Source: Planctomycetota bacterium (GTDB taxonomy: Bacteria; Planctomycetota; SZUA-567; JAKLDR01). Taken from it: a DNA stretch of 64,000 nucleotides. The stretch lies in contig JAKLDR010000001.1 in assembly GCA_022703445.1 (NCBI GenBank), forward strand, positions 107,846 through 171,845, given 5' to 3'. The notes beneath the pieces were generated by a model that was not told the origin of the DNA, did no database searches, and saw only the letters and a list, made by a program, of their open reading frames with translations. Below are positions 22,195 to 28,424 of the stretch, one piece after another; the stretch's first letter is position 1, and every line of letters starts with the position of its first letter. The position numbers were made by a program, and so were the translations under genes.

Positions 22195-23277
22195 ATGGCT
22201 ACGATCAGACTGCTCCTGGTGACGGCAGGGCTCCTGGCGGCGGCTGCGCCCGGCGCGCGCGGCGGCGAGGAACCGGCGGCCCCCGCCCCGGCCCGGGCCT
22301 TCCTGGAGGACTGCGCCACGAAGGCGGCCAACGCCAAGACCATGACCGTGGCCGGCAAGGACGGCTGGCTCTTCCTGAAGGGCGAGCTCAAGCACCTGGG
22401 CCTCGGCGAGTTCTGGGGCCCGGCCGCCGAGAAGACCTCCTCCTCGGCCCAGGCCGACGCCCGGGACCCGCTCGCCGCCATCCTCCACTACAAGGAGCAG
22501 CTCGACAAGGCGGGCATCGAGCTCGTCCTCGTGCCCGTGCCGCCCAAGGCGGTCGTCTACCCGGAGATGATCTCCGACGCGGCCGGCGCCAAGCCGCCGC
22601 GGCTCGACGTCCACCACCAGGAGTTCTACCGATTGCTCGGCGAGAAGGGCGTCAAGGTGATCGACCTGGTCCCGGCCTTGGCCGCCGAGCGCGCCAAGGG
22701 CCAGGGGCCGCTCTACTGCCAGACCGACACCCACTGGTCGGGGCTGGCCACGGTCATCGCCGCCCGGGCGGTGGCCGCGGAGCTCGGGGCCCGGCCCTGG
22801 TTCAAGGACCCCCCCAAGACGAAGTTCGAGGGCGAGGAGCGGGCCGTCGCCTTCCGCGGCGACCTGGTCGAGGCCCTCAAGGCCGCCGGCGGCGCCGAAC
22901 CGCCCGAGGAGAAGCTGGCGCTGCGCTTCGTGGGAACCAAGGATGGCCCGGCGCTCAAACCGGTCAAGACCGATCCGAAGAGCCCGGTGCTGCTGGTCTC
23001 CGACAGCCACGGGCTGGTCTTCAGCATCGGCGAGGACCTCTTCGCCCGAGGCGCGGGGCTGCCCGACCAGCTGGCGTTCGAGCTCGGCTTCGCCGTCGAC
23101 ACCGTCTCCTCGCGCGGCGACGGGGTCACCAAGGTGCGCATCGACCTCTACCAGCGCGCCAAGGCCGACCCGGCCTGGCTCGCCGGCAAGAAGGTCATGA
23201 TCTGGTGCTTCAGCGCCCGCAACTTCACCGAGTGCACCAACGGGTGGCGCAAGCTCCCCGTGAAGAAGGGCGGGTGA
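22195..23277 (+). CDS. AlgX/AlgJ-like SGNH-hydrolase-type polysaccharide O-acyltransferase component (periplasmic).
   Basis: Signal peptide MATIRLLLVTAGLLAAAAPGARG. Conserved DxHW block (QTDTHWSG). RBS GGAGAGG. Confidence 0.7.
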   Translation: MATIRLLLVTAGLLAAAAPGARGGEEPAAPAPARAFLEDCATKAANAKTMTVAGKDGWLFLKGELKHLGLGEFWGPAAEKTSSSAQADARDPLAAILHYKEQLDKAGIELVLVPVPPKAVVYPEMISDAAGAKPPRLDVHHQEFYRLLGEKGVKVIDLVPALAAERAKGQGPLYCQTDTHWSGLATVIAARAVAAELGARPWFKDPPKTKFEGEERAVAFRGDLVEALKAAGGAEPPEEKLALRFVGTKDGPALKPVKTDPKSPVLLVSDSHGLVFSIGEDLFARGAGLPDQLAFELGFAVDTVSSRGDGVTKVRIDLYQRAKADPAWLAGKKVMIWCFSARNFTECTNGWRKLPVKKGG

Positions 23278-23284
23278 GCGGGCC

Positions 23285-26529: not shown

Positions 26530-28191
26530 ATGAACGCGACACCGGAGATCATCCAGGGCGGGCAGTACAACATCGGCCACATCTGCACCCGGATGCAGTG
26601 CGACCGGGGCCTGGGCGACAAGGTGGCCATGCGCTGGCTCGGCGCCCACGGCGAGCGCGCCGACTACACCTTCGGCGACCTCGAGCGCCAGAGCTCGCGC
26701 TTCGCCAACGTCGTCGGCGACCTCGGCGTCGCACCCGGGGAAGTCTTCTTCATCTTCCTGCCGAAGATGCCCGAGGTCTTCTTCGCCTTCCTGGGGGGCC
26801 TCAAGGCCCGGGCGATCACCGGCACGCTCTTCGCCAACTTCGGGGAGGAGGCCCTGCTCGACCGGCTGGGCGACGCCGGCTGCAAGGCGATCCTCACCCG
26901 CCAGAGCTACCTGAAGAAGTTCCAGCGCATCCGGGACAAGCTCCCGACCCTCAAGCACATCCTGCTGGTCGACGCCGAGAAGGACCTCGCGCCCGACGTG
27001 CTCAGCTACCCGCGCCTGATGGCCGCGGCCTCGGAGCGCTTCGAGACCGCGCTCACGCCCCCCGAGACGCCCTCGGTGCTGCACTACACCTCGGGCTCGA
27101 CCGGCAAGCCCAAGGGGGCGCTCCACCACCACCGCAGCGTGCTCCACCAGAGCCGCACCGCCGCCGAGGTCCTCGACCTGAAGCCGGACGACCGCTACTG
27201 GTGCACCGCCGACCAGGGCTGGGTCACCGGCACCTCCTACGGGATCATCGGGCCGTGGAGCCTGGGCGTGACCCAGCTGCACTTCGGCGGGGCCTATGAC
27301 GCGGAGAAGTGGTTCCGGCTCCTCCAGGACGAGCGCGTCTCGGTCTGGTACACCGCGCCGACCGCCCTGCGCATGCTCATGCGCGAGGACCCGGCGCTCT
27401 TCGGAAGGTTCGACCTCTCCGGGGTGCGGCACATCTTCAGCGTGGGCGAGCCGCTCAACCCCGAGGTGATCAGCTGGGGCCGGAAGGTGCTGGGCCACGA
27501 CATCTACGACACCTGGTGGCAGACCGAGACGGGCGGGATCCTGATCACCAACCGGCCGGGTCTGGAGATCCGCCCGGGCTCGATGGGCCGGCCGCTGCCC
27601 TGGATCGAGGCGGCCATCGTGGCCGACGACGGGACGGTGCTCCCCGACGGCGAGCACGGCAACCTCTGCCTCAAGCCCGGCTGGGACTCGATGTTCATCT
27701 CCTACTTCCACCACGAGGACGTCTACCGGCAGAAGTTCCGGCACGGCTGGTACCTGACCGGCGACACCGCCTACCGCGACGCCGACGGCTACTACTGGTT
27801 CCAGGGCCGCAGCGACGACGTGATCAACACCTCCGGCCACCTGGTCAGCCCCTTCGAGGTGGAGAGCGCCCTGCTCGAGGTCGCCGGCATCGCCGAGGCC
27901 GGGGTGATCGGCGCGAGCGACGACCTGCTCTGGGAGAAGGTGGTGGCCTTCGTGGCCCTGCGCCCGGGCGCGGCCTGGGGGCCGGAACTCGAGCTCAAGG
28001 CCCGCATCCACGTCTCCAACCGGGTCTCGACCGTGGCCACGCCCCAGGAGTTCCGGGTCCTGGAGAACATCCCCAAGACCAAGAGCGGGAAAATCATGCG
28101 CCGGGTGCTGAAGGCCCGGTATACTGGGGGCTCGGTCGGCGACGTCTCGACCCTGGACTTCCAGGACGGCGCGAACAAGGAGCAGCCATGA
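26530..28191 (+). CDS. Acetyl-CoA-synthetase-like adenylate-forming ligase, a candidate acyl--carrier-protein ligase.
   Basis: YTSGSTGKPKG, WWQTETGG, GDTAYRDADGYYWFQGRSDDVINTSGHLVSPFEVESAL are Acs/PrpE-type motifs. The stop overlaps the ACP start. Confidence 0.85.
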   Translation: MNATPEIIQGGQYNIGHICTRMQCDRGLGDKVAMRWLGAHGERADYTFGDLERQSSRFANVVGDLGVAPGEVFFIFLPKMPEVFFAFLGGLKARAITGTLFANFGEEALLDRLGDAGCKAILTRQSYLKKFQRIRDKLPTLKHILLVDAEKDLAPDVLSYPRLMAAASERFETALTPPETPSVLHYTSGSTGKPKGALHHHRSVLHQSRTAAEVLDLKPDDRYWCTADQGWVTGTSYGIIGPWSLGVTQLHFGGAYDAEKWFRLLQDERVSVWYTAPTALRMLMREDPALFGRFDLSGVRHIFSVGEPLNPEVISWGRKVLGHDIYDTWWQTETGGILITNRPGLEIRPGSMGRPLPWIEAAIVADDGTVLPDGEHGNLCLKPGWDSMFISYFHHEDVYRQKFRHGWYLTGDTAYRDADGYYWFQGRSDDVINTSGHLVSPFEVESALLEVAGIAEAGVIGASDDLLWEKVVAFVALRPGAAWGPELELKARIHVSNRVSTVATPQEFRVLENIPKTKSGKIMRRVLKARYTGGSVGDVSTLDFQDGANKEQP

Positions 28192-28424
28192 CCACCCTCG
28201 AGAAGCTCAACGGCATCTTCCGGACGGTCTTCGACAACGAGGAGCTCAACATCGGCCCGGAGACCACCGCCAACGACGTCGACGGCTGGGACTCCATCTC
28301 CCACGTCAACCTGATCCTGGCGGTGGAGATGGGCTTCAAGACCCGCTTCAGCCCCGACGAGATCATGGCCTTCCGGAACGTCGGCGACCTGGTCGCGGCG
28401 CTGGAGGAGCGCAAGGCGGGGTAG
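28188..28424 (+). CDS. Acyl/peptidyl carrier protein.
   Basis: 78 aa. DVDGWDSISHVNLILAVE is a phosphopantetheine-Ser motif (DS). ATG at 28188 overlaps the ligase TGA. Confidence 0.8.
   Translation: MTTLEKLNGIFRTVFDNEELNIGPETTANDVDGWDSISHVNLILAVEMGFKTRFSPDEIMAFRNVGDLVAALEERKAG

Follow-up and report, generated by a model that had tools for sequence, protein, structure and literature searches.

Five adjacent genes in a 64,000-nucleotide stretch of a Planctomycetota genome (contig JAKLDR010000001.1; this whole stretch is the window below) encode two SGNH-type proteins (SGNH1 and SGNH2), a polytopic acyltransferase of the MBOAT family, an adenylate-forming ligase and a small phosphopantetheine carrier protein. 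We consider it probable that they form a two-module, carrier-protein-dependent system for the O-acetylation of an extracytoplasmic polysaccharide, the ligase and carrier supplying the acyl group and the MBOAT and SGNH proteins transferring it. What the compared genomes show directly is the set of genes, their conserved linkage, the catalytic residues and a sequence signature on the donor side. The system is Dlt-like on its donor side and AlgI/J/X-like on its transfer side and is a member of neither class; it is also widespread and not unique to the window. A preliminary description of this DNA had proposed a carrier-dependent hybrid of the Alg and Dlt types. Gene linkage and changes on the donor side of the MBOAT now add comparative evidence to that idea, but the five genes are not one conserved unit.

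Linkage of the ligase/carrier pair and the transfer genes

A genome scan with the ligase yielded 80 loci, with ligases 60–79% identical, which span Verrucomicrobiota, Kiritimatiellota, Geobacterales, Omnitrophota, Elusimicrobiota, Bacteroidota, Ignavibacteriota, Armatimonadota, Holophagaceae and others. A carrier gene starts between −40 and +49 nucleotides from the end of the ligase gene in 69 of the 78 loci with enough sequence, and two more loci have one nearby; an MBOAT gene lies at most 6 kb from the ligase in 51 of 62. The usual order of this cassette is ligase, carrier, MBOAT and then a partner of 300–390 residues, which varies by locus and is ALGX-like, DltD-like or a weak GDSL/SGNH match. 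The ligase is far more conserved (60–86% identity) than the cassette MBOAT (29–48%) or the SGNH partner. A conserved ligase and carrier combined with variable MBOAT and SGNH proteins points to a fixed donor module joined to variable transfer modules, and the widespread conserved unit is ligase-carrier-MBOAT with a variable SGNH partner. The concern that the ligase and carrier might be an unrelated pair merely abutting the MBOAT is answered by this co-occurrence, since their close relatives adjoin an MBOAT in most genomes.

The transfer genes behave differently. A metagenome scan with SGNH2 gave 32 loci, and in those with enough flanking sequence the MBOAT (53–69% identical to that of the window), SGNH2 and SGNH1 form a conserved triad. 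Near these stand-alone triads tblastn found no ligase or carrier in flanks of up to 8–10 kb, with copies elsewhere in the same genomes being possible. More stand-alone triads were seen at L118, L119, L120, L131 (in a complete genome of 5.3 Mb) and L132 (in an isolate), the one at L120 lying within a GT2/WsaF/epimerase polysaccharide locus. The full set recurs only in L117, a close relative with the order MBOAT-SGNH2-ligase-carrier (ligase 77% and MBOAT 80% identical), and in four Geomonas genomes, where the gene order differs and ligase-carrier-MBOAT is followed by a fused SGNH2-SGNH1. Judged from these loci, the five genes do not form one conserved unit; in the window an AlgI/J/X-like triad that is autonomous in most cases has been joined to a mobile ligase/carrier donor pair.

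Some loci depart from the common pattern. Seven (L006, L011, L012, L021, L031, L051 and L077) have no detectable carrier gene by the ligase and nonetheless encode S, A or T at ligase position 584 (discussed below); their carrier may be encoded elsewhere, or they may be exceptions to the model. Some Geobacterales loci (L007, L010, L019 and L060) have two or three MBOATs with different SGNH partners and a single ligase/carrier pair, which suggests one donor feeding several transfer modules. In the Verrucomicrobiota and Kiritimatiellota loci with the ligases closest to that of the window (L001, L002, L004 and L005), a DltD-like partner stands beside the ligase, carrier and MBOAT. The same four loci encode a secreted histone-deacetylase-family protein (PF00850, 2e-103; positions 11855-13036 of L002, minus strand), which may be a periplasmic deacetylase tied to the same modification.

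Donor side of the MBOAT

The strongest evidence for carrier dependence is, in our view, a signature that emerges from alignment of the donor side of the MBOAT. The protein (Pfam MBOAT, 1.5e-19) scores 164 bits against the DltB model TIGR04091, under its cutoff of 375, and aligns to DltB (6bug) such that its catalytic-type His, H349, corresponds to DltB H336 and its H305 to DltB position 289. Its C-terminus, NPFIYFIF, is a fused FxYxxF acyl-shuttle motif (F489-I-Y491-F-I-F494), and such a motif ends 59 of 62 cassette MBOATs. The mechanism of this motif is established, and it carries acetyl-Tyr in PatA and D-alanyl-Tyr in DltX (PMC12148441).

We aligned the triad-type MBOATs and looked for positions that split ligase-linked from stand-alone members. 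Flanks were read for 25 stand-alone MBOATs, made up of a first set of 18, five annotated plasmid genes from four phyla and two later look-ups. All 18 of the first set contain W-L-R-D-Y-L-Y-[IV]-P-L-G-G-[NS]-[RQ] and an E-R pair 20–21 residues past the catalytic His, and all 25 contain PLGG[NS][RQ] with E-R/K at window positions 369-370. The five plasmid genes (Bacillus, Bartonella, Deinococcus, Salipiger and Clostridium), whose partners include AlgF in Deinococcus and a DHHW partner in Clostridium, keep the signature with E-R or E-K. In the MBOAT of the window, by contrast, YIPLGGNR and R370 are replaced by the segment Y315-L-F-T-P-L-E-V-A-T and Q370, and the ligase/carrier-linked triad-type MBOATs as a group (window, L117 and Geomonas) read Y-L-F-T-P-L-(EVAT, EIAT, SYLL or NYML) with E-Q. 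The motif P-[LIVM]-G-G-x-[RK] and Arg370 are also both absent from 56/56 other cassette MBOATs, and hence from 62/62 ligase/carrier-linked MBOATs when the six triad-type members (6/6, the window included) are counted with them. Among the 120 closest MBOAT clusters (65–100% identity), 118 keep GGN[RQK], GGSR or GGDR with E-R/K, and the only exceptions are those of the window and L117, both of which are ligase-linked.

In a neighbour-joining tree the window and L117 MBOATs nest in the stand-alone clade beside L119 and L084, and the Geomonas proteins branch at the base; none of 200 bootstrap replicates united the carrier-linked triad MBOATs as a monophyletic group. The change in the donor segment therefore arose more than once, accompanying a ligase/carrier pair.

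The changed segment (window residues 317–327) aligns to DltB 301–312, and thus to helix HC, a horizontal helix at the cytoplasmic (C-)tunnel's entrance at which DltC docks, with DltB M302, V305, I306, M309, K312 and R317 contacting DltC M36, V39 and E40 (PMC11035591). DltB is also without GGNR, and residues I37, V40 and N41 of the window carrier protein have the same offsets from its Ser as the docking residues of DltC. From this alignment we infer that GGNR and R370 serve acyl-coenzyme A (acyl-CoA) recognition and would have been replaced by a carrier-docking surface once the donor became a carrier protein.

In the mechanism that we propose, the ligase would adenylate acetate and then thioesterify it onto the phosphopantetheine arm of the carrier protein, not onto CoA. 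The acetyl-carrier would dock on the cytoplasmic face of the MBOAT at the segment equivalent to DltB helix HC, the acetyl-phosphopantetheine arm would enter the cytoplasmic tunnel, and H349 would catalyse transfer to Tyr491 of the FIYFIF shuttle motif. From the acetyl-Tyr peptide the acetyl group would then move to the catalytic Ser of SGNH2, which is anchored in the membrane, and on to the soluble SGNH1, unless SGNH1 takes it in parallel, and the SGNH proteins would acetylate the glycan during export.

A literature search found no published description of an O-acetylation system built from a ligase, a carrier and an MBOAT, and the only carrier protein mentioned in the Geobacter bemidjiensis genome paper is that of citrate lyase; no named or characterised system of this composition, which would have refuted the preliminary description, turned up. 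Bacterial MBOAT-SGNH pathways are divided into the carrier-dependent Dlt pathway and O-acetylation systems that are treated as acyl-CoA dependent and carrier-free, and a 2025 study of PatA/PatB states that the non-Dlt MBOAT/SGNH pathways lack a carrier protein (PMC12148441). To date, the only donor route known to be fed by a carrier is that of D-alanine in the cell walls of Gram-positive bacteria. We are evenly divided over a broader proposal, in which the loci represent a large and phylogenetically broad, undescribed class of carrier-dependent MBOAT-SGNH acylation in diderms, fed by a new Acs-derived acetate (short-acyl):carrier-protein ligase. In this proposal, YIPLGGNR with R370 would mark an acyl-CoA donor in any bacterial MBOAT and its loss at helix HC a carrier donor, and the window would hold a recent CoA-to-carrier switch of an AlgI-type MBOAT. 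If true, this would be a third arrangement, in which O-acetylation-type machinery has a dedicated carrier-protein supply, and surface glycans would be acetylated directly from free acetate, which is relevant to acetate-rich anoxic habitats. It would also assign a new activity to an Acs-like enzyme now mislabelled in databases as acetyl-CoA synthetase or AMP-binding protein, and would give a function to the WDSLxH carrier proteins, which have a solved structure but no assigned role. Finally, it would provide a residue-level hypothesis of donor recognition by MBOATs, in which exchanging FTPLEVAT/Q370 and YIPLGGNR/R370 should switch donor preference.

Proteins of the two modules and alternative readings

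The ligase matches AMP-binding (4e-75) and AMP-binding_C in Pfam and contains the motifs YTSGSTGKPKG and WWQTETGG. Its best PDB match is Bacillus subtilis AcsA (9g79, 498 bits), with which it shares the fold and aligns over nearly the full length. No DltA entry occurs among its 60 best PDB matches, and every one of its highest matches, to solved structures and to NCBIfam models alike, is an acetate-CoA ligase, in line with the earlier view that it is Acs-like and not of the DltA type. However, none of the NCBIfam models for acetate-CoA ligases is matched above its curated cutoff, the ligase reaching 692.9 bits against NF003313 (cutoff 729) and 444 bits against TIGR02188 (cutoff 725). In the numbering of Salmonella enterica Acs, which we use for all ligase residues, the acetate pocket (V310, T311, V386 and W414) is kept, as are the catalytic K609, G524 and the hinge D517. 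Position 584, in contrast, is Ser in the window ligase and S, A or T in 77/77 cassette ligases, versus R or K in 7/7 canonical Acs/AcsA; the crystal variants R584A and R584E were aimed at this residue. A further six residues that do not vary among the canonical enzymes are changed in the ligase clade, and four of these (528, 539, 556 and 605) belong to the mobile C-terminal domain that makes up the thiol-acceptor site. Identity is at least 60% within the clade versus at most 49% between the window ligase and annotated plasmid acsA genes. On these residues and the paired carrier gene we propose that the enzyme is an acetate:carrier-protein ligase, whose predicted thiol acceptor is the carrier protein and not CoA as in the AcsA type. 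For the window ligase we predict acetate as the acid; for other cassettes a slightly larger acid is open.

We also considered R526L as a marker of lost CoA use and rejected it: the change is specific to the clade when compared with S. enterica Acs and B. subtilis AcsA, yet L or M occurs in 4/5 annotated plasmid acsA genes. The acsA genes at four of the plasmid loci (L126, L127, L128 and L130, from Desulfotalea, Ralstonia, Tropicibacter and Burkholderia) encode L or M at this position and overlap by 4 nucleotides with a pdhA/alpha-ketoacid dehydrogenase beta pair, and look like a distinct AcsA subgroup.

The carrier protein (Pfam PP-binding, 4.5e-6) carries its Ser36 within W34-D-S36-I-S-H39-V-N41. 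All 77 cassette carrier proteins share W34, D35, S36, N41 and E47, and 75 of them also have H39. Among solved structures the window carrier is closest to 2lml, a putative acyl carrier protein (5.6e-19), and no DltC or D-alanyl carrier entry was found there at E ≤ 1. It has the W-D-S-[LI]-x-H-x-N motif of the GmACP3-like specialised carriers and belongs to the same family as these proteins (Geobacter metallireducens; 2lml). A role of GmACP3 in lipid A acylation was reportedly suggested by Ramelot et al. 2011; a long-chain lipid A role does not fit the Acs-type pocket or the MBOAT and SGNH partners in the window.

Both SGNH proteins match Pfam ALGX, SGNH1 at 1.2e-30 (profile positions 2-251 of 268) and SGNH2 at 7e-29 (3-267 of 268), and both contain a DTHW motif; they are 29% identical to each other. 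The best solved relative of SGNH1 is AlgJ (4o8v, 2.6e-11), which SGNH2 matches by sequence at 2e-8. The AlphaFold (AF2) model of SGNH2, with a predicted local distance difference score (pLDDT) of 87.5 and a predicted template-modelling score (pTM) of 0.83, has AlgJ 4o8v as its top Foldseek match (E 2.5e-17, target template-modelling score 0.78), followed by AlgX, Bacillus cereus PatB1 and a DHHW protein. In SGNH1, D178 and H180 (DTHW) and S271 (DSH) are kept in at least 93% of 15 homologues, and in SGNH2 D279, H281 and S370 are invariant among 85 sequences; the catalytic Ser of these proteins falls in DSH or GDS. The AlgJ/AlgX fold and Asp-His-Ser residues ascribed to these proteins are thus borne out by the conserved triads and by the SGNH2 model. 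SGNH1 begins with a signal-peptide-like segment and is proposed to be a soluble periplasmic transferase, and SGNH2 has an N-terminal transmembrane helix (about residues 30-58); one anchored and one soluble protein is the arrangement of AlgJ and AlgX. SGNH2 also has an additional C-terminal beta domain (about residues 473-580), for which Foldseek gave only weak OB-like matches (probability <0.5) when it was considered as a carbohydrate-binding module. SGNH2 and SGNH1 are fused in one chain of about 920 residues (range 905-1099) in Geomonas and in many metagenomic proteins, which argues that the two act together. Examples of the fusion are found at L008, L009, L014 and L020 (about 13.4-16.3 kb) and in P0124, P0134 and P0138, and some other SGNH2 variants (about 720 residues) bear an FlgD_ig domain.

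The system can be set against two known designs. As in Dlt (DltA-DltC-DltB-DltX-DltD), a ligase of the ANL family would load a small dedicated phosphopantetheinyl carrier, and an MBOAT would take the acyl group from it through a cytoplasmic tunnel and pass it by the FxYxxF Tyr to an extracytoplasmic SGNH-fold transferase; the changed MBOAT segment falls on the DltC-docking helix of DltB. In contrast to Dlt, the ligase is Acs-derived, the carrier is of the WDS[LI]xH family, the shuttle motif is fused to the MBOAT and not on a separate DltX microprotein, both partners match ALGX and not DltD, the predicted acyl group is acetate and not the D-alanine of teichoic acids, and the hosts are diderms and not Gram-positive. 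With AlgI-AlgJ-AlgF-AlgX, and with WssH/I (cellulose), PatA/PatB (peptidoglycan) and PatA1/PatB1 (secondary cell wall polysaccharide), the window shares an MBOAT with a fused FxYxxF motif and one anchored, AlgJ-like and one soluble SGNH protein, both with Asp-His-Ser triads, and annotation pipelines give the name AlgI to proteins with which its MBOAT shares 65-72% identity. It differs from them in its dedicated ligase and carrier, in an MBOAT without the YIPLGGNR and R370 of the stand-alone relatives, and in the C-terminal beta domain of SGNH2. No AlgF or alg8/44/K/E-type Pfam matches, and no alginate synthesis genes, were found among the neighbours of the cluster.

Several points weigh against carrier-dependent O-acetylation. 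The closest relatives of the triad, with MBOATs of up to 72% identity, have no adjacent ligase or carrier, so the triad needs neither intrinsically and the window MBOAT might accept acetyl-CoA. With about half of its residues identical to those of genuine AcsA and all the catalytic ones kept, the ligase could have CoA ligase activity. The comparison at position 584 draws on seven canonical enzymes only, and R584 is just one of several CoA contacts. Single substitutions at R584 were reportedly found by Reger et al. 2007 not to abolish CoA use. The cytoplasmic placement of the GGNR segment follows from its alignment to DltB, the residue at position 414 varies such that the acyl group may differ among cassettes, and no glycosyltransferase was seen beside the cluster or the export-type genes downstream, so that an acceptor polymer is not indicated there. 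We also infer that the carrier is loaded and that the MBOAT uses the acyl-carrier, as we do the nature of the acyl group and of the acceptor glycan. The ligase could then be an ordinary acetyl-CoA synthetase that feeds an AlgI-like MBOAT locally, with the PP-binding protein being an accessory or serving another pathway. This would suit an enzyme with AcsA as its best solved relative, an NF003313 score of 693 bits just below the cutoff, and an intact acetate pocket and catalytic Lys, as well as the labelling of clade members as acetyl-CoA synthetase in some databases, the use of acetyl-CoA by PatA (PMC12148441) and the closest triads without the pair. We nevertheless regard it as unlikely. The carrier gene follows the ligase, often overlapping it, in 69/78 loci across phyla, the basic residue at 584 is lost in 77/77, and the MBOATs adjacent to the pair have lost GGNR/R370 at the DltC-docking helix, also independently inside the stand-alone clade. 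Such a systematic loss is hard to explain with acetyl-CoA as an unchanged donor.

There is a small chance that the architecture operates as proposed with the carrier loaded with another small acid, for example propionate, glycolate or lactate. W414 (in WWQTETGG, 27520-27530) is shared by the window and four relatives, and F is found there in 71/76 cassette ligases, which suggests a slightly larger pocket in most of them, and the use of a dedicated carrier is easiest to understand for an acyl group without an abundant CoA pool; the V-T-V-W pocket of the window ligase, however, is identical to those of S. enterica Acs and B. subtilis AcsA. It retains V386, whose replacement by Ala reportedly favours propionate (according to Reger et al. 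2007). We find it improbable that the ligase and carrier feed acylation of a lipid, or of lipopolysaccharide or lipid A, and not of a glycan: the WDS[LI]xH family of the carrier and the many cassettes in glycosyltransferase-rich lipopolysaccharide/O-antigen-like loci would be compatible with this, but with W/F414 and V386 closing it, an Acs-type pocket has no room for long chains, the partners have the AlgJ/AlgX/PatB1 fold whose characterised members act on glycans, and one stand-alone triad sits inside a GT2/WsaF polysaccharide locus. Chance juxtaposition of a functionally independent ligase/carrier pair and MBOAT triad seems to us very improbable, although the modules differ in their evolutionary history and the triad mostly occurs by itself. 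They are separated by 3 nucleotides on the same strand, the window offers no other MBOAT to a pair that is otherwise MBOAT-linked, L117 and Geomonas show the combination again with their genes ordered differently, and loss of GGNR/R370 among the 120 closest MBOAT clusters is confined to the two that are ligase-linked.

Cluster layout and genomic setting

All five open reading frames lie on the plus strand where the preliminary description had placed them (Table 1), and an independent gene call on public contigs identical to the window agrees with them. The family assignments of the preliminary description were right by Pfam, and its picture of co-directional, tightly packed genes is accurate. 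None of the motifs that it quoted is missing: each SGNH protein contains DTHW, the ligase has both YTSGSTGKPKG and WWQTETGG, and the carrier has WDSISH. SGNH1 and MBOAT are separated by 7 nucleotides, MBOAT and SGNH2 by 8 and SGNH2 and the ligase by 3, and the ligase stop shares 4 nucleotides (ATGA) with the carrier-protein start, an overlap that suggests translational coupling. G+C at third codon positions is 0.96-0.98 in the five frames, in a window of about 70% G+C. No second MBOAT, ligase or carrier protein was found in the window.

Table 1 Features of the acylation cluster and its upstream neighbours in the window.
Feature	Position	Strand	Description
LamG-domain protein	17041..18375	+	upstream; gene call and Pfam
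558-aa protein	18388..20064	+	upstream; gene call
705-aa secreted protein	20061..22178	+	upstream; weak FlgD_ig/NHL-like signal (Pfam)
SGNH1	22195..23277	+	AlgX/AlgJ-type SGNH O-acyltransferase-like, secreted, 360 aa; Pfam ALGX
MBOAT	23285..24769	+	494 aa; Pfam MBOAT
SGNH2	24778..26526	+	membrane-anchored AlgJ-type SGNH O-acyltransferase-like, 582 aa; Pfam ALGX
Ligase	26530..28191	+	Acs-derived adenylate-forming, 553 aa; AMP-binding and AMP-binding_C
Carrier protein	28188..28424	+	phosphopantetheine carrier, 78 aa; PP-binding
Hairpin	28438..28463	+	perfect, GC-rich, 10-bp: GGTGCCCGGG, 4-nt loop, CCCGGGCACC; read off the sequence
aa, amino acids; nt, nucleotides.

The hairpin begins 14 nucleotides past the carrier-protein stop and may mark the end of the operon. 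It has no U-tract, and a terminator scan did not report it because the T run is absent; promoter and terminator scans of 15.3-29 kb gave nothing beyond shuffled expectation. A gap of 259 nucleotides separates the hairpin from a URO-D-like gene, which is followed by genes for a GH2 (beta-glucuronidase-like) protein, a MerR-like protein, Poly_export, a tyrosine-kinase-like P-loop protein and an XrtA/PEP-CTERM-type ATPase. The preliminary description had taken the adjacent URO-D-like, GH2 and export genes as fitting a surface-polysaccharide context. They are present, but conservation of the module does not extend to the URO-D-like and GH2 genes, and we rejected these two as conserved members of the system since neither has a homologue in any of 112 related loci. 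The export-type set lies at 31903-37920, 3.5 kb downstream of the cluster, and consists of the MerR-like protein, Poly_export, a 446-aa protein, the tyrosine-autokinase-like P-loop protein, the ATPase (TIGR03015 at 3e-35, under the cutoff) and a 524-aa protein.

The three packed upstream genes (17041..22178) are possibly co-transcribed, and their membership in the system is uncertain; they are not conserved at the ligase loci. A GntR/periplasmic-binding-type regulator gene in the same direction (15962-22178 region) overlaps the start of the LamG gene by 4 nucleotides, the 558-aa and 705-aa proteins encoded after the LamG gene are secreted, and the whole upstream run abuts the acylation genes. 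Further out, genes for Ala, His and Asp aminoacyl-tRNA synthetases and for glycogen metabolism (a GH57 branching enzyme and a glucose-1-phosphate nucleotidyltransferase) surround the cluster (12049-15357, 41897-43231 and 48962-51133), placing it in a housekeeping region and not in a recognisable polysaccharide island. At L119, the gene for a giant LamG protein of 1398 residues precedes the stand-alone triad.

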